The notes under the pieces: model-generated
Told to the model about the DNA's origin: nothing
What the model saw: only the letters and a program-made list of their open reading frames with translations
The model's database searches: none
Virus record (IMG/VR): IMGVR_UViG_3300045988_165665
Coordinates: 1 to 46,813 of that record
From: a virus
Strand: one strand, 5' to 3'
DNA length: 46,813 nucleotides
In this document: positions 1,303 to 42,522 of the stretch, piece after piece
Layout of the letters: every line of letters begins with the position of its first letter
How positions within the stretch are numbered: position 1 is the first letter of the stretch
Position numbers and translations under genes: made by a program

Positions 1303-2031
1303 ATGGAAATCATCTCTATAATAAATCAAAAGGGCGGAGTTGGAAAAACAACAACTGCCCAAAATTTAACAGCAGGTTTAAGATTGCAAAATAAAAAAGT
1401 ATTATTGCTAGATTTAGATGCACAATGTAATTTAACTTTATTACAGCAAGCAACTAAATATAAATATAATATTTTAAACGTTCTAAAAAATGAAGTTGAC
1501 ATAAATACAGCTGTCGAAAAAGATTTTATCGCTGGATCTAAGTTTCTAGTTGGTGAAAATACTGAAATTGAGTTAAATAAATTGAAAAATGAATTGCAAA
1601 AATTAAAAACTGATTATGATTATATAATAATTGATACACCACCAGCATTATCTAATATAACTATTAATGCATTAACAGCAAGTACAGATATTATAATAAC
1701 GATAACAGCAGATTTACTACCAATTCAAGGTTTAGTTGATTTATACAAAACTGTACAATCTATACAAAAAACATCTAATAAAAACCTTAATATAAAAGGG
1801 ATCTTAGTAACTAGATTTAATAAACGAACTATATTAGGAAGAACTATGTTAAATAGTCTTATTGATATAGCAGAAAAATTAAATACAAAAGTATTAAATA
1901 CCAAAATAAGAGATAGTATCTCTATAAAAGAGTCCCAAGCAAAAATGACTGATATATTTAAATATGCTAGATACTCTACAGCTGGTCGAGATTATAGAGC
2001 ATTAGTAAAAGAAATATTGGAGGATAAATAA
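1303..2031 (+). CDS. parA: ParA/Soj-type partition ATPase
   Basis: Deviant Walker A NQKGGVGKTTT. AAGGAG RBS before ATG 1303 (track start 1261 is probably too long). IIIDTPP Walker B. Confidence 0.9.
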   Translation: MEIISIINQKGGVGKTTTAQNLTAGLRLQNKKVLLLDLDAQCNLTLLQQATKYKYNILNVLKNEVDINTAVEKDFIAGSKFLVGENTEIELNKLKNELQKLKTDYDYIIIDTPPALSNITINALTASTDIIITITADLLPIQGLVDLYKTVQSIQKTSNKNLNIKGILVTRFNKRTILGRTMLNSLIDIAEKLNTKVLNTKIRDSISIKESQAKMTDIFKYARYSTAGRDYRALVKEILEDK

Positions 2032-2282
2032 TGAGTAACTTTAAAACTTTTGATAATCCAGCAGATATGCTATTAGGTTTAGATGATAACAAACCAGAAC
2101 CTGAAATAATAACAGATAAAAAAAATCTAAAAGAAATTCTTGATTATGAAAAACAAACAAAAAAGAAATTAATAGTCATTGGTCCAAAATTATTTGAAAT
2201 CATAGAAAAAAAAGCTAAAATTGATGGTCGCAGTGTTAATAATTATATAGTTAACGCATTAAAAGAATATGTACTAAAATAA
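2031..2282 (+). CDS. Small centromere-binding partner, RHH (ParG/CopG-like) C-terminus
   Basis: Translationally coupled to parA (ATGA overlap). C-terminal KIDGRSVNNYIVNALKEYV looks like ribbon-helix-helix. Confidence 0.6.
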   Translation: MSNFKTFDNPADMLLGLDDNKPEPEIITDKKNLKEILDYEKQTKKKLIVIGPKLFEIIEKKAKIDGRSVNNYIVNALKEYVLK

Positions 2283-2286
2283 TAAA

Positions 2287-2326
2287 AGAGCCTAGCACAT
2301 AAATTAGTGTTAGGCTCTTATTTTTT
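2287..2326. terminator. Bidirectional intrinsic terminator between parAB and the convergent 62-aa gene
   Basis: agagcctagcac/gtgttaggctct stem flanked by an A-run and a T-run. Confidence 0.75.
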
Positions 2327-2397
2327 ATCCATTTAGAGCTGTTTTATTTTTATCTTAATTTATACCTACAAAGATTTTAAACAGCTTATACAGGCTA

Positions 2398-2586
2398 TTA
2401 TTTTATAGCTTTTTGGCAATCCTTATACCAAAGGCACACATCTATATTACATTGTTTAGTTGCATAACAAGGATTATTTCCCTCTTGCTCCTGCAATATA
2501 TGTATCATATCTGCTTTTTTTGCTTTCTTTGGTAGTATTACAGCTCTATCTTTTGCTATAGTTTTTATTTCTTTTATTGTTGGCAT
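2398..2586 (-). CDS. 62-aa SAP/Rho-N-like protein with C-terminal Cys4 cluster
   Basis: GAAGGTGAG RBS. TIKEIKTIAKDRAVILPKKAKKADMIHILQ resembles a SAP/Rho_N helix pair, followed by CYATKQCNIDVCLWYKDC. Confidence 0.6.
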   Translation of the reverse strand: MPTIKEIKTIAKDRAVILPKKAKKADMIHILQEQEGNNPCYATKQCNIDVCLWYKDCQKAIK

Positions 2587-2961
2587 CTACTCACCTTCTT
2601 TCTTGGTATATATAAATTTATTTAAACTAGGCACTAACTTTAGCTTTACTTCTAAACTAAAAAAGATTACGCTTGGGAGGATTGCGGAGCCGTGTTCTAG
2701 ATATAGTTATACCTTTAGCGTTCTACTAAAGATATAACTATATTTTTTTACGCCTGGTTTTCTTGCGTCTGCCAGTCCAGTTTTCTACTAGTTCCTGCTT
2801 TTACACAGGTAGGATATTAATGGTTACTTAATTGCCCCAACCACCATACGTTTCCATATGTTATCCTAATACGGCTTATAGCTTATGCTACAATCCCAGT
2901 CTGCAACTTACGTTGCCTTTAACCACCGTTGTCTACTTTTAACCATATAAATATATTACTC
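2587..2961 (-). ncRNA. Structured about 370-nt leader or second module of the large RNA
   Basis: No ORF. GNRA hairpins at 2845-2860 and 2903-2916. Three-way junction closed by 2810-2816/2862-2868. 18-bp hairpin 2701-2743 has a G.U only on the minus strand. Confidence 0.5.
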
Positions 2962-2965
2962 AAAT

Positions 2966-2987
2966 AAAAAAAGCCGTCTAAACGGCT
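2966..2987 (-). terminator. Intrinsic terminator (minus strand) inside the ORF-free region
   Basis: Minus strand reads agccgtttagacggct followed by TTTTTTT. Confidence 0.7.
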
Positions 2988-3035
2988 CTCATGAGTTCTT
3001 ATTTACTTAGGCTTATTAAGGGAGTTTAACAACAT

Positions 3036-3213
3036 TCCGCCCTCTTAGGTAAATGCAAATAGTAGAATATATTTGCATGCCCCACCGATTTTCCGCCTCC
3101 GCTGGTGATACGGTTGGTTACTTTCTGCAACCACTTATTTATACACTCCGCCAAGTGTAGCTTTCGCTCTCCTAGAATAAGCATCTAGGCACGCTCTTGA
3201 CGTTTATTCCGCC
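3036..3213 (-). repeat. Four phased GGCGGA motifs (plus strand TCCGCC) at 3036, 3092, 3147 and 3208
   Basis: Spacing is 56, 55 and 61 nt. Two copies share CACTTGGCGGA. One copy sits in the loop of hairpin 3142-3159. Confidence 0.6.
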
Positions 3214-3322
3214 AAGTGATTTTAGATACTAAAAAACACATTTATCATCATTCCCACATGGGAAAAATGTAAATGTGCCTACTATTCCTACCTAAAATCA
3301 TTTTATTTTGTGATATCATATG

Positions 3323-3351
3323 TTGACATATCGCAAATACATAAGTATAAT
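3323..3351 (+). promoter_or_regulatory. Perfect sigma-70 consensus promoter TTGACA-17-TATAAT
   Basis: ttgaca at 3323-3328 and tataat at 3346-3351, with an exact 17-nt spacer. Confidence 0.75.
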
Positions 3352-3357
3352 GAGTTT

Positions 3358-3438
3358 AGAAAGTAACTCGAGCAACTTATGTTGTGGGTAGGTTGTTCGG
3401 CAAAGTCGGTTGTACTGCCAATACAATCGGCTTTTTTT
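3358..3438 (+). ncRNA. About 80-nt sRNA antisense to the 5' part of the long minus-strand RNA
   Basis: Lies between the consensus promoter and the intrinsic terminator at 3405-3438. No ORF. Confidence 0.6.
3405..3438 (+). terminator. Intrinsic terminator of the plus-strand sRNA
   Basis: 10-bp stem gtcggttgta/tacaatcggc (two G.U pairs), 7-nt loop, TTTTTTT. Confidence 0.75.
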
Positions 3439-3439
3439 A

Positions 3440-3468
3440 TTTCTAAAAACTTTTTATAAAATTGTCAA
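3440..3468 (-). promoter_or_regulatory. Second, weaker minus-strand promoter TTGACA-17-TAGAAA
   Basis: Plus-strand tgtcaa at 3463-3468. The -10 element matches 4 of 6. Confidence 0.35.
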
Positions 3469-3483
3469 ATTATTTACATCTTT

Positions 3484-3512
3484 ATAATATATTAAATTAA
3501 ATATATTGTCAA
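3484..3512 (-). promoter_or_regulatory. Near-consensus promoter TTGACA-17-TATTAT driving the long RNA
   Basis: Plus-strand tgtcaa at 3507-3512 and ataata at 3484-3489, with a 17-nt spacer. Lies just downstream of the operon terminator. Confidence 0.65.
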
Positions 3513-3514
3513 TT

Positions 3515-3548
3515 AAAAAGGGCTGCTAAAGATAGCAGCTCTTTTTTT
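3515..3548. terminator. Bidirectional terminator after the ParB-like gene
   Basis: gggctgct-aaagat-agcagctc stem flanked by an A-run and a T-run. Confidence 0.75.
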
Positions 3549-4062
3549 ATTTTATATCCCATGAATTACTAAACTCTTCATTTCTAAATAAAGATGCTAG
3601 TCCGCTCATCTGTTTTAAACGAATAACTTCATCAGCATCCATTCCTAAATGCTTCATTATCCATTTATCAGTTTTCCCCATATCTTTTAATTCTTTTACG
3701 ATATTACTCATTAAATCAACATCATGCGAACCTCTAGCTCTATTATGGCGAATTGTACTTGCCATACGTTCACCAATAGGCTTATTAACTACAGATACTG
3801 GAAGCATTCCTTTTTCACGTTCATAAATATCTTTATACTTCAGCATTATAGAATAGCGGTGAAATCCATCAACTATCTCATACATATCTTCATCTGCATT
3901 GTAATAGCAAACGATAGGCATGGTATAGCCATCTTCTTTTATGCTATCATATAATAATTTCATTTCTGGTGGTGCTACATGATTTGGATTATATTCGTTT
4001 GCACGAATTTTTTCTACTGGTACAGCTATTATATTATAAACAGGGCTTTTAAATTCTGACAT
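3547..4062 (-). CDS. ParB/Srx-fold N-terminal domain protein (IbrB-like)
   Basis: VPVEKIRANEYNPNHV...IVDGFHRY...TIRHNRARGSHD are ParB-nuclease/sulfiredoxin-type motifs. Directly follows the PAPS-reductase-like gene. Confidence 0.75.
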   Translation of the reverse strand: MSEFKSPVYNIIAVPVEKIRANEYNPNHVAPPEMKLLYDSIKEDGYTMPIVCYYNADEDMYEIVDGFHRYSIMLKYKDIYEREKGMLPVSVVNKPIGERMASTIRHNRARGSHDVDLMSNIVKELKDMGKTDKWIMKHLGMDADEVIRLKQMSGLASLFRNEEFSNSWDIK

Positions 4063-4072
4063 GATATCACTC

Positions 4073-5374
4073 CTATAAATTTTTATATTTTTCCATTATC
4101 TTCTGTTGTCTTAGTGTTAAATCTTTGGTTATAGAAAAGGATAAACCTTTGCATATTATGTCATTTTTTATAATGCACATTGCCATTCTTTTCCATGTCA
4201 ATATATCTTGCTTTTTATCTATTGGATGCTCGTCTATTATTCTTTTAAATTTAATTACTTCTTTATCACCTTTTCCTCGCTTGGAAAAACTATGTGTATT
4301 AATAATATCTTCTGGTACAGTTTCTTCTAATTCTTTTATAAAATCATCTTGCATTGGACATCCTGTTCTTTGCCAATACTTAATAAATTTTATAAATTTG
4401 GTTTTATACATCTTTGCCGTATCTGGTGGCAATGTTGACAATAAAAACTTTGTAAAACTCTTCCATGTATGATTTTTTGGCAATGTATATCTAGCGGACA
4501 TTATTTTATTACCGCTATAGATATTACCAAAGTTAGCTCCAGATACACGATTGACTACACGAACCCATAAATCTGGGGCAATAACCTTGAATAAATTCAA
4601 ACCTGCTTTTGCTTCGTTTCCAAATGGTTCATCAACACGCATTTTATCTATTGGAACACCTGCTTTATAAAACAGGTCATAAAGTTTGTTATATGGCTTA
4701 TTGTATTTGCCATAGTAAATCCAATCATCTTTTGTAGTCCAATCATATATTGGGTAAAAATTATAGCAATTATCATCTATTTTTTTGCTATAACTTTTAT
4801 CTTTATAATGATTTTCCTGCTTTCTTTGACTCCCACCGATTGCCCTAAAACGATTAAGGCTTTCATCTGTACGGATGCCTACAAGTTGAGCAGTTTTTGC
4901 ACCTGCTCCATACCATTGAGTAAAGTATTTTATAAATTCCTCAAACGGCATGTTTTCTTTATAAAAATTAAACGGATTATTTTTTAAATTTATAACCCAT
5001 TTATTTTTAGGCATAGGGCGAACCCATATAGGTTCTTTTTCTGGTTCCCACCATATCCATGTAGGATCTAAATAAGATAAACTATTTGGGCTTTCCATTG
5101 GTAGACAAACCCAGTATGGTTCAAGTACATCTTCATTTTCTGTCAGCATCTTTTCAATATACTCTATAGTTATTGGATAAAATGCTTCTAAATCAATAAA
5201 GAGAACACCTAATTTTCTTCCTCTAGCTCTTGCTATATCAATAGCCATGTTAAGAACAACACCGCTATCTTTACCGCCAGAAAAAGATATACAGACTTTA
5301 TCAAATTCATCAAATATGAAGTTTAGTCTTTCAACTGTAGCTTCATATACATTTTTGTTTTTGTATATTTTCAT
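4073..5374 (-). CDS. PAPS-reductase/PP-loop ATP-pyrophosphatase family protein with long C-terminal extension (IbrA-like)
   Basis: PP-loop SFSGGKDS near residue 30. 433 aa. Paired with the ParB-like gene, as in ibrA/ibrB. Confidence 0.75.
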   Translation of the reverse strand: MKIYKNKNVYEATVERLNFIFDEFDKVCISFSGGKDSGVVLNMAIDIARARGRKLGVLFIDLEAFYPITIEYIEKMLTENEDVLEPYWVCLPMESPNSLSYLDPTWIWWEPEKEPIWVRPMPKNKWVINLKNNPFNFYKENMPFEEFIKYFTQWYGAGAKTAQLVGIRTDESLNRFRAIGGSQRKQENHYKDKSYSKKIDDNCYNFYPIYDWTTKDDWIYYGKYNKPYNKLYDLFYKAGVPIDKMRVDEPFGNEAKAGLNLFKVIAPDLWVRVVNRVSGANFGNIYSGNKIMSARYTLPKNHTWKSFTKFLLSTLPPDTAKMYKTKFIKFIKYWQRTGCPMQDDFIKELEETVPEDIINTHSFSKRGKGDKEVIKFKRIIDEHPIDKKQDILTWKRMAMCIIKNDIICKGLSFSITKDLTLRQQKIMEKYKNL

Positions 5375-6758
5375 TGTATTTCTCCTCGTCTACATTTTTC
5401 CAAATAGCAATCTGCTTTTTGAATGAATCTAGTAGATTGCTTTTATTTTGCAAACAATTTGCTATAAAAACATCTATGGTATATTTACAGCATATATCAT
5501 AGATGTTAACCGTCCGCTCCTGGCCAATGCGGTGAACTCTATCTTCTGCCTGCAAACGAGTTGCAAGGTCAAAATCGTTCGAATAGAAGATGATGTTATG
5601 GCAAAATTGAAGATTTAAACCATAAGCTCCACATTGTTTGTTGGCCAACATAAATTGAACATCATTTTTAAACTCAATTCTATTTTGTTGACGTTGTTTA
5701 GGTCTTATTTCTCCAGTAAATTCTACAAAGGTTTTATTCATTGAATCCAAGAGAAATTTTATATCTTTTATTTCATCCTGATATTTGGCAAAGATAATAC
5801 ATTTATCATTGCCAATTTCTTCAATGACTCTTTTTAAACATTGTATACGTGGATTATTTTTCCATGTATACATCTTTTCTGTACGCATCCGTTTTTCTGG
5901 TGCTGATAACACTCTCTTACCAGAAGTAATATGTTGCAATGCAGAAAATAATTTAAATATCGTTTCCGACCGCCAATCTACTACATTAAAAAGGAATAAC
6001 TCTTTTGTTTCGTAATATTCCTCTTCTTGTAAATCATCCAAACAAAAATATCGCATATGATATTCCTTTGGTTTAAGTTCTTTTAATACCTCATCTTTTT
6101 TGATTTGGTACATATATGGAGCTATCTTTTCTGTTAAATAGTCCACATTTAGAACTCTTATAATTTGGTCGGTCGTTATCTCTCTACCACTTGGAAGCCT
6201 TACTTTTTTATATTCTAAGTGATTAGCGGCAAAGCTATAAAAAGACTTGTATCCCAATATCCGCCAATCTAAGATATACCATTGGGCGAATAAGTCCGCT
6301 TCATTCTTAGATATTGGTGTACCATTCAATATCATCTTATATTTGCAAAAAGATGATATTTCTATAATACGTTCCGTTCTTATGGCCAACTTATTTTTTA
6401 CAAGGTTGCTTTCATCCACAATTAGATAAACTTTGTAATTTTTTACTAGCTCTAACAGCTGTAAATATAATCTATCAGAACTAGACAAGCTTTCAATTCC
6501 CTTAATTATTATGTTATTTTCACTAGGTTTTTGACCTGTATGCTTTATAACATCTTCTTTAAGGTTATTTTTAACCGAACAAGGGCATAGCCAAAGTACA
6601 ACATTAACCTTTCCCTTATCCATTTTATTTTTAATAATTTCTAAAGCCGTTCTCGTCTTTCCTGTTCCTTGCTCCATATACAAAGCACCAACTTTAAGCT
6701 TAGAAAGTTTATCGACAGCTTTAGATTGGTATTTATATAGTTTTGTTTTTAAAATCAT
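5343..6758 (-). CDS. SNF2-family helicase/ATPase
   Basis: Motif I EQGTGKT, motif II LIVDESN and motif VI QAEDRVHRIGQ. Coupled to both neighbours. Confidence 0.85.
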   Translation of the reverse strand: MILKTKLYKYQSKAVDKLSKLKVGALYMEQGTGKTRTALEIIKNKMDKGKVNVVLWLCPCSVKNNLKEDVIKHTGQKPSENNIIIKGIESLSSSDRLYLQLLELVKNYKVYLIVDESNLVKNKLAIRTERIIEISSFCKYKMILNGTPISKNEADLFAQWYILDWRILGYKSFYSFAANHLEYKKVRLPSGREITTDQIIRVLNVDYLTEKIAPYMYQIKKDEVLKELKPKEYHMRYFCLDDLQEEEYYETKELFLFNVVDWRSETIFKLFSALQHITSGKRVLSAPEKRMRTEKMYTWKNNPRIQCLKRVIEEIGNDKCIIFAKYQDEIKDIKFLLDSMNKTFVEFTGEIRPKQRQQNRIEFKNDVQFMLANKQCGAYGLNLQFCHNIIFYSNDFDLATRLQAEDRVHRIGQERTVNIYDICCKYTIDVFIANCLQNKSNLLDSFKKQIAIWKNVDEEKYNENIQKQKCI

Positions 6759-7207
6759 ATGAATACCATCTTTAAATCATCAATTACTTTAGCTATATCG
6801 GCTAAAGTATTTTTTTCTTTAAACTTATTAATATTTATGATTTCTAAACGTTCCTTAAGGTCGTCTATATCATAAATAATAATTGGTGCGTCTGGATTAT
6901 TCTTATAATATTCTATTTGAAATATTATGGAAGCCTTTGCCAAAATAAAAGCTTCTTTTTTATTAAATAAAATATCTTTATCGGATACTTCATCTAACAA
7001 TATAAACCCACTACGGAATTTATTTTGCTGTTTAATCATATCTTTTAATTTTGATATGATTAATGGCTCAAGGACAGTGGGACGTGGTGAACGTCCCATT
7101 TCCCAAAACTCCCATGTAGATACTCCAACTCCTATTTTTTTAGCCATTTCTACCTGTGATAATCCTAATTCTAATCTTAATTTTTTTATTTCGTCTTTGA
7201 ACAACAT
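6755..7207 (-). CDS. XRE-type HTH protein
   Basis: IKKLRLELGLSQVEMAKKIGVGVSTWEFWEMG is HTH_3-like. ATGA coupling to the SNF2 gene. Confidence 0.7.
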   Translation of the reverse strand: MLFKDEIKKLRLELGLSQVEMAKKIGVGVSTWEFWEMGRSPRPTVLEPLIISKLKDMIKQQNKFRSGFILLDEVSDKDILFNKKEAFILAKASIIFQIEYYKNNPDAPIIIYDIDDLKERLEIININKFKEKNTLADIAKVIDDLKMVFI

Positions 7208-7224
7208 ATTTAATTTCTCTCCCC

Positions 7225-7632
7225 TTAACGATATGTGACAAAATCACTCCAAGGACTATAGATTGAACCCAATTGACGTCCATGAGGAACACAACAAAGA
7301 GCTCTAGCTAATTCAATAATTAGTTGTGTTTTACTTAAAGCATTATTTTGTGCAATATCTTTTAAAGCATCTGTTTCATCATTTTGATATCTGCCTTGAT
7401 TCTGTACTTTTGAAAAACGATTTAAATAAAATATAATATCTTTTCTATCAAAGCACTCCCAATCATGTGATTTAGCCATTTTTTCGGCATGTTTTTTTAA
7501 TTCATCTCCTTTTTTGTATATAAGCTCTCTTAAACTATCACAGTTTTCTTTAATTTTGAAATATTTATTAGCACTTATTTCGTTAATCAAAATGTTTATT
7601 TGATTTTCTAATTCTACTTGTTGTTTATTCAT
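7225..7632 (-). CDS. Hypothetical protein (135 aa from the internal Met)
   Basis: AAAGGAG RBS before ATG 7632. The track start at 7707 overlaps the upstream gene and lacks an RBS. Confidence 0.6.
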   Translation of the reverse strand: MNKQQVELENQINILINEISANKYFKIKENCDSLRELIYKKGDELKKHAEKMAKSHDWECFDRKDIIFYLNRFSKVQNQGRYQNDETDALKDIAQNNALSKTQLIIELARALCCVPHGRQLGSIYSPWSDFVTYR

Positions 7633-7699
7633 AATAAAATCTCCTTTTAATATACTTAATATATATATCCGTATATATTTTTTATTTTTGGCAAAATAC

Positions 7700-8707
7700 T
7701 TAATCATCTTTTAAATCATCTAAAACATCTCTGGATGATTTTAAGATGTCTTGTAGTTCTGTATTTTCTTCTTTTTTTACATCAGCTTTTTTTATTGTTG
7801 TTTTGATGTGAGCTTTTTCATCATCTTCAGCTTGAGATAACAACTCTTCTGCTGCTGGTGTTATCTTAAATTCATTTATTTTGGCAAAATCTCTTATTTC
7901 TGCATAATATCTTGCAGGAACATCCATTCCACCATTTTCCCATTTAGCATGTGGGAGTCTTTTAGCTTTTCTATATAATTCATCACTTCTAAACTCCCAT
8001 ACAATACTTATCATATCTTTATCTTTAATTATCCAACGGAAACATTCTTTTTCATATTCTCCATTTATGGCTTTTTCTCTAATAGCTTCATCCCAAATTA
8101 TGATTGGGACTCCAGCCAGTAAAAGTTTATTGCCGACTTCTGCCATTCGATCGGTAACATCTCTTTTATATGGCACTGTTTCACGATACCATACTTTACC
8201 AGACCAATCATAATGTAGACTTTTTACAGTGTTGATTACGATTTGGTCTTTTTCAGATTTTACTTTCACTTCATTAATTTCATCATCAAATATTATTTCC
8301 GCAACGACCTTAGTTTTTTGGTCGTTTGGATATACTATAGCTTCAGCTTTTGCTTCATCAATAACACTCTTTTCTTTTGGTTCTTCAAAATAAAGAGTAC
8401 TTTCGATTAGTCTTTGGAATTGAAAATAATCTTTTTCTCTATGTTCAATCCAAAAACTAGCTTTATTTTTAGATAAAATAAAGTGTTCAGCTTTTTTAAT
8501 AACCTCTTCATCCATTTCAATGAAGTATAAGCCTTTTTTAGAATTGAAAGCATAATACATAATTAGGTTTCTTGTTACCTTAGCCCTAATTTTATTTGCC
8601 CATTCTACTTGTTTTGGGCTTCCAGATAATGGAGCAATTTTATCTAAATTATCGCTAAAATTTTCAGCTATATTCATTATTTCATCAGAAAACATTTCAA
8701 CTTTCAT
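7700..8707 (-). CDS. Hypothetical 335-aa protein with acidic C-terminus, first gene of the operon
   Basis: Long ORF with AAGGAG RBS. No family recognised. Confidence 0.65.
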   Translation of the reverse strand: MKVEMFSDEIMNIAENFSDNLDKIAPLSGSPKQVEWANKIRAKVTRNLIMYYAFNSKKGLYFIEMDEEVIKKAEHFILSKNKASFWIEHREKDYFQFQRLIESTLYFEEPKEKSVIDEAKAEAIVYPNDQKTKVVAEIIFDDEINEVKVKSEKDQIVINTVKSLHYDWSGKVWYRETVPYKRDVTDRMAEVGNKLLLAGVPIIIWDEAIREKAINGEYEKECFRWIIKDKDMISIVWEFRSDELYRKAKRLPHAKWENGGMDVPARYYAEIRDFAKINEFKITPAAEELLSQAEDDEKAHIKTTIKKADVKKEENTELQDILKSSRDVLDDLKDD

Positions 8708-8721
8708 TTTTATTTATCTCC

Positions 8722-8781
8722 TTTACTTTTCCCGCAAGCAAAGGTATACTTAAAATATCTCGCTTGCGGGATATTGACAAT
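8722..8781. promoter_or_regulatory. Back-to-back promoters bracketed by the 9-bp inverted repeat CCCGCAAGC/GCTTGCGGG
   Basis: Minus strand: TTGTCA-17-TATTTT (8752-8780). Plus strand: TTTACT-17-TATACT (8722-8750). The IR arms at about 8731-8739 and 8762-8770 flank both -10 boxes. Confidence 0.45.
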
Positions 8782-8788
8782 CACTTAT

Positions 8789-8829
8789 GAGCTTAGGTAG
8801 TGCCATTACCTAGGCTCTTTTTATTTTTT
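8789..8829 (+). terminator. Plus-strand intrinsic terminator (orphan)
   Basis: 11-bp stem gagcttaggta/tacctaggctc has a G.U on plus but a C.A mismatch on minus, then TTTTTATTTTTT. Confidence 0.55.
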
Positions 8830-9177
8830 CTATGCATTAACATTATTTCCATCAGTGTACTCTTCTAAAACTCTTCTATTTTTACCTATAACAAATAAAT
8901 ATTTCAACAATTTAGGACAGTCATTTAAACAAATTGCCGTTTCTCTGTCCTCTTTTTTATTTTTTTTGGATGTAAATATCATAAAAGCCCCTTTTCTTCC
9001 AACTAAGCAAGATATATAAGCTTCTACATTATCTGCAATATTTTTGCGGTTAACATATACAGATACAATAACACTATATATATTATTTGTATCTTTTTCT
9101 CCTAATATAACTTTTACTTTTGCCCCTCTTGAGCTTACAAATTTAAAAGTTCTTTTTACTTTAATACCTTTTCTCAT
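8830..9177 (-). CDS. Hypothetical 115-aa basic protein
   Basis: ORF with AGAGGGA RBS, driven by the consensus promoter at 9289-9317. Confidence 0.6.
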   Translation of the reverse strand: MRKGIKVKRTFKFVSSRGAKVKVILGEKDTNNIYSVIVSVYVNRKNIADNVEAYISCLVGRKGAFMIFTSKKNKKEDRETAICLNDCPKLLKYLFVIGKNRRVLEEYTDGNNVNA

Positions 9178-9288
9178 GTTTATCCCTCTTTATTTTTATT
9201 TTGGTTACCACCCAATCATAGGCTATAAATTTGAATACTTTGGTTGCTACCCAACTATCAGCTATTAATTACATCATCTTATGTTTTT

Positions 9289-9317
9289 ATTATACCCTCT
9301 TTAAGAGGGTATGTCAA
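9289..9317 (-). promoter_or_regulatory. Perfect TTGACA-17-TATAAT promoter whose spacer is a 19-bp palindrome
   Basis: Minus strand reads TTGACA taccctcttaaagaggg TATAAT. TACCCTCTT-A-AAGAGGGTA is a perfect inverted repeat. Confidence 0.7.
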
Positions 9318-9330
9318 TAATATTTTGAGC

Positions 9331-9364
9331 AAAAAAATAAGCCCTACCTTTATTGGTAGGGCTT
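9331..9364 (-). terminator. Intrinsic terminator ending the small-protein cassette
   Basis: aagccctacc/ggtagggctt stem followed by a U-run on the minus strand. Confidence 0.75.
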
Positions 9365-9367
9365 TAT

Positions 9368-9889
9368 TTATAAGAGCTTAGCATCATAATTTATACGCTG
9401 AAGCTTTTCTATTTCCTTAAGAATATATTTATGTTCCTTAAATGTATCTTTGTAGAATTCCTGGAACTTGATATAATCCATGCATTGATGTTCTAACGTG
9501 TAATGCATGCATGCTAGATATAATTCCATTGTGGATTCTTCCCATTTTTTCCAGTTCTGAAAAGTTTCTTTTAAGAAATTTTTTCTATATTCTATGGTTA
9601 CTTGGTCTGGAGTATAACGCATAACTTCTTGCTGTTTAGATACTACCTGTAATTTTTCAAATTTAGGTGTTTCTAATATTTTTCCATAATTTTGCAAGTA
9701 ATAAAGTTGTGTTTCTTCAAATTTTTCTTGTTCTTCTTTTGTTTGTTCTTTATGCTTTTTACTGTAGCAATCTAAGGAGCAGAAGGCATTAAATAGCATC
9801 ATATCGTTATGGAATATAACACCTTGCATTTGGTGTTCTAAAACTTTCTGATACATTGCTTCTTTGGTCCAAGATTTTGTATCTATCAT
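9368..9889 (-). CDS. All-helical 173-aa protein, ferritin-like pattern (weak)
   Basis: ATGA coupling to the upstream gene. The pattern around EEQEKFEETQLYYLQNYGK resembles ferritin helix B-C but lacks the His. Confidence 0.55.
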   Translation of the reverse strand: MIDTKSWTKEAMYQKVLEHQMQGVIFHNDMMLFNAFCSLDCYSKKHKEQTKEEQEKFEETQLYYLQNYGKILETPKFEKLQVVSKQQEVMRYTPDQVTIEYRKNFLKETFQNWKKWEESTMELYLACMHYTLEHQCMDYIKFQEFYKDTFKEHKYILKEIEKLQRINYDAKLL

Positions 9890-37869: not shown

Positions 37870-38217
37870 TTATACTAGCTGCATAAGTCTTTCACACATT
37901 TCATTAACTAAAAACTCTTTATCGTATTCATCAAAACATATTATGACATTGTTAGTACCTATAGGATTTTGTAAATGAATTCCCATAATACAATATCCTT
38001 CTTTTATTCCTATAGGAAAATCTTTATCTTTTAATATATATATAACTGTTGCCTTAGCAGAATTACCAGTAAAATTCTTTTTTATTGGATCATATTCTTT
38101 TAAAATAAGCGTATCACCGATTTTATAATTTCTATCATTTTTCCTTACTTCAAAATTTTTATTTCCACCAATAATTTCTTTGAAGTATTTAGGAATTATC
38201 TTTAATTTATGTTCCAT
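37870..38217 (-). CDS. DUF3850/ASCH-like protein
   Basis: LKIIPKYFKEIIGGNKNFEVRKNDRNYKIGDTLILKEY. Confidence 0.6.
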   Translation of the reverse strand: MEHKLKIIPKYFKEIIGGNKNFEVRKNDRNYKIGDTLILKEYDPIKKNFTGNSAKATVIYILKDKDFPIGIKEGYCIMGIHLQNPIGTNNVIICFDEYDKEFLVNEMCERLMQLV

Positions 38218-38219
38218 TT

Positions 38220-38513
38220 TTATTCACCTTCTATTTGTTCATTAAAATCTGTATAATTTAAAAGATTAATTACTATAACGCTGTTTTCTTTTGGTATCTC
38301 TGGAAAATTTTCATTATTTATGACACATAGAATTTCACATGTAGCTTTACATCCTGTATATTTTCTTTTTATTGCGTCATATTCGTTTAAAATAAGCATG
38401 TCATTTGCTTTAAATTTTATATTTTTTCTTATTTCAAATATTTTATTTCCGTTTATTATTTCGCTAAAATACTTCGGTAATATATTTAACTCATATATAT
38501 TTAAATATTTCAT
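38220..38513 (-). CDS. DUF3850/ASCH-like protein (tandem paralog)
   Basis: LNILPKYFSEIINGNKIFEIRKNIKFKANDMLILNEY. Confidence 0.6.
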   Translation of the reverse strand: MKYLNIYELNILPKYFSEIINGNKIFEIRKNIKFKANDMLILNEYDAIKRKYTGCKATCEILCVINNENFPEIPKENSVIVINLLNYTDFNEQIEGE

Positions 38514-41560: not shown

Positions 41561-42298
41561 TTATACCTCCAATTCTTTATATGCTTTTTCTATACAATCT
41601 AAAAATGTATAATTGCATGATATTTCTATATGTGATTTTCTTATTTTTACAAATCCCATATTTTGTAATTTATATAAAATATCTTCCACTGTTCTATATT
41701 CCAAGCCAAAAACATTTTTAAATGTTGAATATATTGTGTTAAATTCTAACCATGATGCATTATTATCTAGCGTTGGTTCTGGTAGATTATCTATTATTAT
41801 TGCTAATGCTACCCATATATTAGGCTTGTACTCTCTTTTACAATAGAAATCCCCCTGTTTTCTTATTAATGGCAATAAAGCTCTATTCATGCTTTCTTTT
41901 TCTGCTATTTTAGGAATATACATATTTAGCAATACATTTAAATCCGCCACTATTAAATCAGATTTAAATTCATATAATCCTGATAACTCTTTTAAAATGT
42001 ATTGTTTGTCAAAGTCGCTAAGGCTAAATACTAATCTCCAAATGCTGTCTTGGTTATAAGTTAAAATCTTATAGTGCATAACTTCCATTGTGATGTTTTC
42101 CTCAAGAAATCTATCATGTGCTTTTATAAGACTGCCAAGAGGTGTTAATTTCTTCCCATTACTTAACCCTGTTAATTTAAGCCAGCTTTTTAAAACTTTT
42201 ACTTGATTGGCTGTTATTCCTAATTCTTCTGGCTTTAAGTTGTTATATTTAAGACCTTTTGCTAGGTGTCTTAAGTTAAAAGCTCCATAGTTTTTCAT
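41561..42298 (-). CDS. 245-aa protein, possibly DUF4007-like (low confidence)
   Basis: ATG 42298 overlaps the upstream stop. LGITANQVKVLKSWLKLTGL resembles the LGVGKNMV..IRYWL.ATGL motif as I remember it. Confidence 0.35.
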   Translation of the reverse strand: MKNYGAFNLRHLAKGLKYNNLKPEELGITANQVKVLKSWLKLTGLSNGKKLTPLGSLIKAHDRFLEENITMEVMHYKILTYNQDSIWRLVFSLSDFDKQYILKELSGLYEFKSDLIVADLNVLLNMYIPKIAEKESMNRALLPLIRKQGDFYCKREYKPNIWVALAIIIDNLPEPTLDNNASWLEFNTIYSTFKNVFGLEYRTVEDILYKLQNMGFVKIRKSHIEISCNYTFLDCIEKAYKELEV

Positions 42299-42522
42299 CA
42301 CAATTCCCCATACCAGCACCAAGTATCTTTAGACCATGCTAATAAATCTAAATATTCTTGTGCTTTGTTATACGTAGAAAATATCTTGTTGTTTTTTTCT
42401 ACATATCTATTGCCTTCTAATTCTGAACCAATATCTTTTGTATATACTGTATATTGGTTATTTTTTAATTGATGTACATAGTAAATACGCTTTCCGTCTG
42501 TGTATTTATCGCTTTTAACCAC
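42298..42522 (-). CDS. Hypothetical 74-aa protein (GTG start)
   Basis: AAAGAG RBS. 58-nt overlap with the upstream ORF. Confidence 0.4.
   Translation of the reverse strand: MVKSDKYTDGKRIYYVHQLKNNQYTVYTKDIGSELEGNRYVEKNNKIFSTYNKAQEYLDLLAWSKDTWCWYGEL

Follow-up and report, generated by a model that had tools for sequence, protein, structure and literature searches.

What might a phage do with an SNF2-type motor that is encoded directly ahead of a reductase-like enzyme and a ParB-like protein? This question was raised by a module at 8.7-3.5 kb on the minus strand of the virus record IMGVR_UViG_3300045988_165665 (IMG/VR), a complete record of 46,813 bp with direct terminal repeats, which was analysed at its full length and is called the window here. 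An earlier sequence-only reading had described the locus as a six-gene operon (3547-8707) ending in genes for an SNF2 protein, IbrA and IbrB, and had proposed a DNA-tracking modification, anti-restriction or transcription-activation machine. This range of roles remains a reasonable hypothesis, and the six open reading frames (ORFs) were real, co-directional and located on the minus strand at the coordinates given. We found that the conserved unit consisted of four of these genes, namely those for a 335-amino-acid (aa) adaptor, the SNF2 protein, IbrA and IbrB, and that IbrA and IbrB had been exchanged as a pair next to a nearly identical SNF2 gene. Our tentative answer is that the module may carry out a motor-coupled, adenylation-dependent DNA modification that would protect the phage DNA.

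Four co-conserved genes

Gene neighbourhoods were compared in two sets of loci. The IbrA-seeded set comprised 89 loci (80 viral contigs with an IbrA relative, six contigs from metagenomes or genomes, and the genomes of three annotated phages). The SNF2-seeded search was based on an alignment of 23 module SNF2 proteins and returned 79 viral loci, 73 of which had downstream room. On the IbrA side, IbrB adjoined IbrA in 86 of the 89 loci. Together with the fitting domain architecture, this supported the earlier assignment of the last two genes to an IbrA/IbrB-type pair. An SNF2 gene was located directly upstream of IbrA in 37 of the 89 loci, and a relative of the 335-aa protein was found upstream of SNF2 in 18 to 19 of them. 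On the SNF2 side, IbrA and IbrB followed the SNF2 gene in 72/73 viral and in 72/72 bacterial loci (144/145 of those with sufficient downstream sequence). The bacterial loci came from many phyla, including Bacillota, Pseudomonadota, Desulfobacterota, Bacteroidales, Chloroflexota and Lentisphaerota. The link between the pair and an SNF2 protein, which the sequence-only reading had called fixed, was thus borne out from the SNF2 side, but the accompanying link to a helix-turn-helix (HTH) protein was not. Namely, only 3 of the 79 viral loci from the SNF2-seeded search had the XRE-type HTH protein of the window, and none of the 80 viral contigs collected with IbrA encoded a relative of it; the lone match there was an unrelated Cro-like gene outside the L002 module.

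The gene for the 335-aa protein, which we named o335, was located directly 5' of SNF2 in 70/73 viral and 54/68 bacterial loci of the SNF2-seeded search. Additionally, five more homologues of this protein were checked singly and all five directly preceded an SNF2-IbrA-IbrB run. Because the adaptor, SNF2, IbrA and IbrB were conserved together and the XRE protein and a 135-aa ORFan were lineage-specific, the conserved unit was made of four genes and not of six.

The adaptor (7700-8707, minus strand) had been listed as one of two orphans. This description was right for the 135-aa protein but not for the 335-aa one, whose family included 1,169 representative clusters at E<=1e-30 and 9,482 at E<=1e-3, and which was the fourth conserved component of the module. 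The family was unnamed, had no Pfam match and was a dedicated partner of SNF2. In six viral loci (L089/L165, which are a single contig, L157, L160, L162 and L167) the C-terminal half of o335 was fused to the N-terminus of SNF2. An AlphaFold2 (AF2) model of the adaptor, with a predicted local distance difference test score (pLDDT) of 82, consisted of a helical N-terminal part bearing the motif GSxKQxxWAxxIR, two alpha/beta domains (pLDDT >90) and an acidic tail. The acidic C-terminal tail was kept throughout the family. Most members started with a four-cysteine Zn-ribbon, which was missing from the proteins of the Megamonas lineage, the window copy included. No match at E<0.2 was obtained in a PDB fold search with the adaptor. 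In BFVD, it resembled the N-terminal part of a phage helicase, a protein labelled 'HepA-related' and uncharacterised proteins of phages. Likenesses to the XPB damage-recognition domain and to AcrIF23 were dropped as too weak.

The SNF2 gene (5343-6758, minus strand) encoded a minimal SWI2/SNF2 ATPase core of 471 aa, in which SNF2-rel_dom scored 45.4 bits (cut-off 24.9) and Helicase_C scored 54.2 bits (cut-off 23.5). In the hidden Markov model searches, the HTH, SNF2, PAPS_reduct, DUF3440 and ParB calls for the operon all exceeded the Pfam cut-offs, in agreement with the domains named from the sequence. The SNF2 motifs were intact (Walker A GTGKT, DES and the motif VI sequence QAEDRVHRIGQ), and the columns G31, G33, K34, D115, E116, S117, R407 and R410 were invariant in 23 homologues. 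Its closest relative in PDB was the Rad54-like core from Sulfolobus (1Z63, E 2e-20, residues 7-443). The protein was predicted to be a double-stranded DNA translocase. Among the PADLOC models, ZorD and DpdE were the closest, both of them partial matches, and DrmD was matched as well.

The IbrA-IbrB pair and its exchange

IbrA (4073-5374, minus strand, 433 aa) contained a PP-loop adenine-nucleotide alpha-hydrolase domain followed by DUF3440. The first part matched the phosphoadenosine phosphosulfate (PAPS) reductase family PAPS_reduct (PF01507) with 55.5 bits (cut-off 22.5), and the second matched DUF3440 (PF11922) with 176.8 bits (cut-off 25, E 4.8e-52). The whole protein was a member of PHROG 2302, annotated as PAPS reductase/IbrA (E 1.6e-106). 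Its PP-loop SFSGGKDS occupied residues 30-37, and S32, G34, K35, D36 and S37 were invariant in 36 homologues. In the same 36 homologues no cysteine was invariant, C408 alone being nearly so. According to the AF2 model (pLDDT 82), the N-terminal 240 residues had the fold shared by PAPS reductase, FMN adenylyltransferase, CysD and TtuA. The Foldseek matches to CysH, APS reductase, FAD synthase and TtuA (E 3.5e-6 or weaker) spanned about 230-310 alignment columns, out of 433 modelled residues, and none was full-length. The modelling suggests that the DUF3440 half of IbrA has no solved structural relative. The fold search also returned the tRNA thiolases TtuA and NcsA together with TilS (E 3e-5 to 9e-4).

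The fold comparison confirmed that IbrA has a fold in common with DndC/SspD-type enzymes, as had been stated from the sequence. However, IbrA itself was rejected as a member of these families. It scored 26.2 bits with the DndC model TIGR03183, for which the cut-off is 290.4, and the PADLOC models of DndC, BrxP and SspD matched with E 1.6e-7, 1.5e-5 and 5e-3, respectively, each over a short stretch.

IbrB (3547-4062, minus strand, 171 aa) had an N-terminal domain of the ParB/Srx fold and a C-terminal HTH that reads GMDADEV.RLKQ. ParB_N (PF02195) scored 26.8 bits (cut-off 26.3), and the protein belonged to PHROG 2159 (ParB-like/IbrB, E 5e-82). The sequences NPN..PPEM, DGFHR and RHNRARGxH, located at the positions of ParB boxes I-III, were invariant among 27 homologues, the protein as a whole being extremely conserved. 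Weak PDB matches were obtained with Spo0J, Noc and the ParB/Srx-fold serine kinase SerK, and none of the PADLOC models matched IbrB.

The closest relative of the window was L096, a complete phage of 42.7 kb. Outside the module on both sides, and within it from the adaptor and the HTH gene as far as the core of SNF2, the two genomes shared 87-93% DNA identity. This homology ended at window position 5382, 8 nucleotides (nt) before the IbrA start, and restarted at 3548, 1 nt past the IbrB stop. A hairpin at 3515-3546 formed the right-hand boundary of the exchanged segment. At the protein level, the adaptor, the HTH protein and SNF2 were about 90% identical (90% over 459 residues for SNF2), whereas IbrA and IbrB were 30% and 43% identical, respectively. 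The arrangement in L096 was SNF2 fused to a 291-aa protein (p291), a short IbrA (373 aa), IbrB and a 220-aa protein (p220), whereas the window had a bare SNF2, a long IbrA (433 aa) and IbrB. Since exactly both genes were exchanged between the two phages, IbrA and IbrB move as one unit. Moreover, a near-identical SNF2 was found beside such divergent partners; the motor thus tolerates enzyme pairs that differ widely. On the other side of the boundary, window positions 1742-3548 (an ORF-free stretch and partition genes) were 91% identical to L096:9552-11377, and this block started exactly at the point of the swap.

The partners of IbrA and IbrB were classified in 85 non-redundant IbrA-seeded loci. 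SNF2 was present in 32 of them, in variable combination with the adaptor and a GNAT. Another 36 had an unnamed 143-aa family, which could be accompanied by an ectoine-synthase-like cupin and a different, Zn-ribbon-bearing SF2 helicase. Neither SNF2 nor the 143-aa family was found in 14 loci, three of which had a GNAT, and the remaining three were incomplete because IbrB was not detected. SNF2 and the 143-aa family were mutually exclusive, as no locus (0/85) contained both. In six loci (L052:4099-5235, L057, L072, L078, L084 and L087) the 143-aa family was fused to the C-terminus of IbrB. The EctC-like cupin (PF06339, E 1.8e-44) was located between IbrA and IbrB in six loci (as at L016:5611-5994), and another six encoded it as an N-terminal fusion with IbrB (as at L025:8150-9091). 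The 143-aa proteins were helical, carried the motifs WEDY..GMY and NRxAWxGQAACC and occurred in 37 of the 89 loci (e.g., L016:6444-6875 and L025:9054-9485); the family had no Pfam or PHROG match.

The SNF2-type loci had accessory genes of their own. GNATs were present in about 30% of them and were in some cases fused to the C-terminus of SNF2. Among the 79 SNF2-seeded viral loci, p291 was located between SNF2 and IbrA in 16 (e.g., L101:6673-7548), and the fusion with SNF2 seen in L096 (5001-7271), a protein of 756 aa, was also found in L093 and L178. Profile searches with p291 gave no PDB match and no Pfam or PHROG match above the cut-off; one of three members had a sub-threshold match to SNF2-rel_dom (15 bits, E 0.014; cut-off 24.9). 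The p220 gene directly followed IbrB in 19 of the 79 loci (e.g., L101:9206-9871) and was present in all 16 loci that had p291. The p220 protein carried the amino-methyltransferase motifs IV (DPPW) and I (CMGRG) and had a sub-threshold Pfam match to N6_N4_Mtase (E 5e-4). The p220 of L096 (8890-9552) read DSPW in place of DPPW. ParB-methyltransferase neighbours were also observed at some related loci. No remnant of p220 was found by tblastn downstream of IbrB in the window.

Transcription signals and genomic setting

The window had a G+C content of about 30% throughout, and a close homologue of its adaptor (P0128) carried the name Megamonas funiformis. Almost all genes were on the minus strand. 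Regulation and replication genes were located at about 46-36 kb, genes for packaging, structure and lysis at about 35-12 kb, and the module, with signals of its own, at the far end of this late strand. Beyond the module and past the ORF-free stretch, a ParA / Arc-like partition cassette was encoded on the plus strand (1261-2282). Because of this cassette, the genome was assigned to the phage-plasmid type. No match to window positions 3000-9500 was returned by megablast among 50,697 phage records.

Two candidate promoters preceded the module on the minus strand. The outer one, at 9289-9317, was a perfect TTGACA-17-TATAAT located just downstream of a terminator (9364-9339). Its spacer was filled by the 19-bp palindrome TACCCTCTTAAAGAGGGTA, which occurred once in the window and in 0 of 100 shuffles. 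Since this palindrome had no other copy in the genome, no regulon could be drawn from it. The inner candidate, TTGTCA-17-TATTTT at 8752-8780, was a consensus match only; it was located within the inverted repeat CCCGCAAGC/GCTTGCGGG, immediately 5' of the adaptor gene. Between the two promoters, a basic ORF of 115 aa (8830-9177, minus strand) had no family match in Pfam and PHROG searches; a homologue was located upstream of the module in L096. No minus-strand terminator was found between this ORF and the start of the operon at 8707, and the ORF may be a seventh, first cistron of the same transcription unit. The leader between the outer promoter and this ORF (9200-9260, minus strand) contained TTGGGTAGCAACCAAAG and TTGGGTGGTAACCAAAA, a pair of similar 17-nt elements at a distance of about 40 nt from one another, either of which could form a short hairpin or serve as a binding site. 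At the other end, the hairpin directly after the IbrB stop had a stem of 14 bp on the plus strand (3515-3546) and of 7 bp on the minus strand (3539-3522), and was read as a putative bidirectional terminator that closes the operon.

Within the operon, the sequence-only reading had listed three gene overlaps. Those between the HTH and SNF2 genes (6755/6758, 4 nt) and between the SNF2 and IbrA genes (5343/5374, 32 nt) were correct, and IbrA and IbrB were separated by a 10-nt gap. The third, at 7700/7707, was true only of a mechanical ORF of 160 aa (7225-7707). The corresponding ORFan was a protein of 135 aa (7225-7632, minus strand), whose start at 7632 was preceded by an AGGAG ribosome-binding site and left a gap of 67 nt to the preceding stop. 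The same protein was called at 135 aa in other assemblies (P0323). It formed only five clusters, all at least 86% identical, among 5.8 billion proteins, was not present in L096 and, like the 115-aa protein, was without a relative in all 89 IbrA-seeded loci. The ORFan was lineage-specific cargo. Next to it, the XRE-type protein (6755-7207, minus strand, 150 aa) had HTH_3 at residues 7-47 (33.1 bits, cut-off 23) and about 90 aa of unassigned C-terminal sequence, was also present in L096 and L093, and was probably a local regulator of the operon.

The interval between the adaptor and SNF2 (7208-7699 in the window) was a variable slot in Megamonas-type phages. It held the HTH gene alone in L096 and L093, the ORFan and the HTH gene in the window, and four small genes, a homologue of the ORFan among them, in L178 and L179. 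Comparison by hhalign of the ORFan and of the HTH protein's C-terminal part with the GNAT, the cupin and the 143-aa family gave probabilities <1%, so neither is a hidden member of these families.

The module was also found in dairy and rumen phages, where it was located between lysis and early genes and where no integrase was annotated in the stretches examined. In prophages, it adjoined host genes at the prophage edge. Small HTH, Arc or MazE-like genes often flanked it. Several other features of these genomes were recorded. In the early region of the window, two neighbouring paralogous DUF3850 (PF12961) genes were located at 37870-38217 and 38220-38513, both on the minus strand (E 1e-31 and 2e-15). 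One module-bearing phage (L008:11614-14052) had an intein (PT-HINT, Intein_splicing) between two Terminase_6N pieces of its large terminase, and one module-bearing prophage (L091:1261-2946) had a diversity-generating-retroelement pair (bAvd and reverse transcriptase) upstream of its lysis genes.

Possible roles of the module

On the reading that we tentatively favour, the module would have two halves. The motor half would be the adaptor and the minimal SNF2 translocase, and the chemistry half would be IbrA, a PP-loop ATP pyrophosphatase or adenylyltransferase with DUF3440, and IbrB with its nucleotide-binding ParB/Srx domain and HTH. IbrB would contact DNA through the HTH and a nucleotide through the ParB/Srx pocket, and would place IbrA on the DNA. 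IbrA would then spend ATP on adenylating DNA at a base carbonyl or a phosphate, which would make this group substitutable. SNF2 and the adaptor would travel along the duplex so that many sites are reached or bases become exposed. The outcome would be a covalent mark on the DNA of the phage or phage-plasmid, shielding it from host nucleases or defence systems.

The partners have DNA as their common denominator, given the SNF2 core, the HTH of IbrB and the adaptor, which has a weak likeness to a helicase N-terminus and is fused to SNF2 in some loci. The nearly absolute linkage of SNF2 to IbrA and IbrB was also counted in favour. Adenylation was considered because IbrA keeps its PP-loop and has a modelled fold found in AMP-transferring or AMP-using enzymes (CysD, FMN adenylyltransferase, TtuA and TilS). 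The accessory genes of related loci appear to encode small-molecule or base-modifying types of enzymes, which we counted as supporting. A benefit to the phage itself is favoured by the occurrence of the module in phages of dairy and rumen origin, whose examined stretches had no integrase annotated. Moreover, no recognisable DNA methyltransferase and no cysteine desulfurase (Aminotran_5) were found in the phage, and no TGT/DpdA (PF01702) was found in the complete 46.8-kb record, while 14/14 control genomes were positive. The module was therefore the only candidate DNA-modifying system of this phage.

Pairs of a ParB-superfamily protein and a DNA-modifying enzyme have precedents in DndB/DndC and DpdB/DpdA. 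In the DndB/DndC and SspD/BrxP systems, a ParB-superfamily protein and a PP-loop enzyme of the PAPS-reductase fold are likewise linked to DNA-acting ATPases, and they serve DNA marking in phage-host conflict. Unlike DndC and BrxP, IbrA of the window has DUF3440 instead of their C-terminal regions and no invariant cysteine, and unlike Dnd-bearing genomes, the phage lacks DndA, DndD, DndE and a cysteine desulfurase. A 253-aa DUF4007 protein (PF13182, 55.5 bits), from the family of SspB and of a BrxP-fused DNA-binding module, was encoded at 41561-42322 (minus strand), two genes downstream of Rep. It was rejected as an Ssp-type partner, being located in the replication region and absent from five other module-bearing phage genomes; it was probably a DNA binder of the replication region and not a partner of IbrA. 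The Dpd system similarly combines a ParB-like ATPase, a base-modifying enzyme and SNF2-family helicases on DNA, and the SNF2 protein of the window matched DpdE models (E 1.5e-20, helicase core only). In contrast to Dpd, the enzyme of the window is a PP-loop protein and not a transglycosylase. ParB N-terminal domains of phages are often coupled to a DNA-modifying enzyme, and Mom of phage Mu is a GNAT-fold modifier of DNA adenine. Among related IbrAB loci, some have the DPPW methyltransferase-like protein or a GNAT, whereas the window module has neither of these proteins.

Closer comparisons were possible with known IbrA/IbrB pairs. The Escherichia coli proteins (IbrAB island, ECOR-9) and the phage proteins have the same architecture of PAPS_reduct and DUF3440 followed by ParB_N. 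IbrA of the window was 55% identical to that of Streptococcus phage CHPC1230 and 42% identical to those of Lactobacillus phage CR28 and Streptococcus phage PYS40. CHPC1230 has the IbrA/IbrB pair alone, and CR28 and PYS40 also have an upstream SNF2-type helicase, which is of a short subtype and is not accompanied by the o335 adaptor. Unlike in those phages, the pair of the window is located behind an adaptor and a long-type SNF2, with the XRE gene and the ORFan inserted between them.

Several observations weigh against DNA modification. IbrA/IbrB have a single known experimental phenotype: they switch on the eib genes of prophages, as described by Sandt et al. 2002 (cited in PMC7649339). No DNA modification of any module-bearing phage was reported in the literature searched. 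The same literature offered no mechanism for IbrA/IbrB, DUF3440 or YbdN/YbdM, in line with the earlier statement that the mechanism of the pair was undescribed. Because IbrA has no conserved cysteine, phosphorothioation, the established DNA chemistry of its fold, is unlikely. The window module itself has no GNAT, cupin, p220 or p291. In prophages, the position of the module at the edge next to host genes, with its own promoter and terminator, is a layout typical of cargo expressed in the lysogen. Finally, the 30% and 43% identical enzyme pairs behind near-identical motors disfavour a tightly co-evolved interface between the motor and the enzymes.

The eib phenotype is the starting point for a different proposal, in which the module co-activates transcription. 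IbrB would be a nucleotide-switched clamp or site-specific binder that, together with IbrA and a RapA/HepA-like SNF2, relieves silencing or recycles RNA polymerase and so turns on genes of the phage or the host. The combination of an HTH and a ParB-type N-terminal domain in IbrB would suit this role, as would the weak matches of SNF2 to RapA and to the NCBIfam model 'pilus expression-regulating Snf2', the single 'HepA-related' neighbour of the adaptor in BFVD and the small HTH, Arc or MazE-like genes that commonly flank the module. However, the matches to regulator families were all far under the curated cut-offs, the eib phenotype could be an indirect result of DNA modification or damage, and the invariant PP-loop enzyme and the recurrent GNAT, cupin and methyltransferase-like partners would be left unexplained. 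We considered this role unlikely, with a real chance of being correct. A lower chance was given to defence or conflict between elements, in which the module, expressed by a prophage or phage-plasmid, would mark resident DNA or attack incoming DNA, with the ParB/Srx protein acting as a nuclease regulated by nucleoside triphosphates, and would cause exclusion of superinfecting phages or plasmids in the manner of Dnd, Dpd or BREX type 4. According to a review, ParB/Srx proteins can act as nucleases. The position at the prophage edge beside host genes, the consensus promoter with its operator-like palindrome and the terminator also fit this idea, as do the closest PADLOC matches (ZorD, DpdE and DrmD for SNF2; DndC and BrxP for IbrA) and the spread of this SNF2 type in bacterial genomes of many phyla. 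On the other hand, the PADLOC matches never had more than partial coverage and IbrB had none, the module contains no recognisable nuclease effector, it also occurs in dairy phages that had no annotated integrase in the stretches examined, and it is located among phage genes and not in defence islands. A defensive role therefore appeared quite improbable.

The substrate might also be other than DNA. IbrA could modify a base of tRNA or rRNA, or IbrA and IbrB could convert a nucleotide or signal and thereby blunt host immunity. The matches to TtuA, NcsA and TilS point in this direction, and so do the small-molecule kinases among ParB/Srx proteins, with SerK as a weak match of IbrB, and the EctC-like cupins and GNATs, which are typical small-molecule enzymes. 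Nevertheless, an obligate SNF2 of the double-stranded DNA translocase type (or an SF2 helicase in the other subtype) and the HTH of IbrB are hard to fit to such a target, which we regarded as very unlikely. The remaining explanation follows the database names 'phosphoadenosine phosphosulfate reductase' and 'ParB-like partition protein': IbrA would be a PAPS reductase of sulfate assimilation, carried as an auxiliary metabolic gene, and IbrB a partition ParB, in a phage-plasmid genome that does have a partition cassette nearby. This housekeeping explanation was effectively refuted by scores, residues and the separate partition cassette. The CysH models reached 22-33 bits against cut-offs of 154-254 (32.7 vs 154 for NF002537, 26.7 vs 254.2 for TIGR02057 and 22 vs 165.1 for TIGR00434), and no cysteine was invariant, although such a reductase needs a catalytic one in its C-terminal part. 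The partition model TIGR00180 scored 20.9 against 58.45 with IbrB, whose sequence reads DGFHR in place of the GERRxR box. The partition cassette at 1261-2282 was complete by itself, as its ParA (1261-2031) is paired with an Arc-like protein of 83 aa on the opposite strand from IbrB. Additionally, IbrB always travels with IbrA, even in phages whose examined stretches show no plasmid-partition genes.

Thus, DNA modification remained our preferred, if tentative, reading of the module. In a bolder form, which we considered doubtful, o335-SNF2-IbrA-IbrB would be an undescribed machine with a generic motor and an exchangeable chemistry half (IbrA and IbrB, with or without p291, p220, a GNAT or a cupin) that installs a new base or backbone mark through adenylation, and the swap with L096 would be an exchange of marks.

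The window copy was ordinary for its kind, save for the cassette swap that showed its two-half design. IbrA and IbrB genes are among the commoner unexplained genes of phages and are routinely mislabelled as genes of sulfur metabolism or partition. In the present analysis, one particular SNF2 subfamily and the large, unnamed o335 family were tied exclusively to these two genes. The linkage proved obligate when viewed from SNF2, the adaptor family proved large and fused to SNF2 in several phages, and the 143-aa family proved to belong to a partner set that excludes SNF2; the p291/p220 pair and the exact limits of the swap were further additions. The cassette exchange and the obligate linkage together define a clear four-protein unit. 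If the unit does modify DNA, it would bring a new ATP-activated chemistry among the DNA marks of phages and would explain how many phages from gut and dairy sources withstand host defences. If its role is transcriptional regulation, it would represent a new type of ParB-plus-SNF2 switch.

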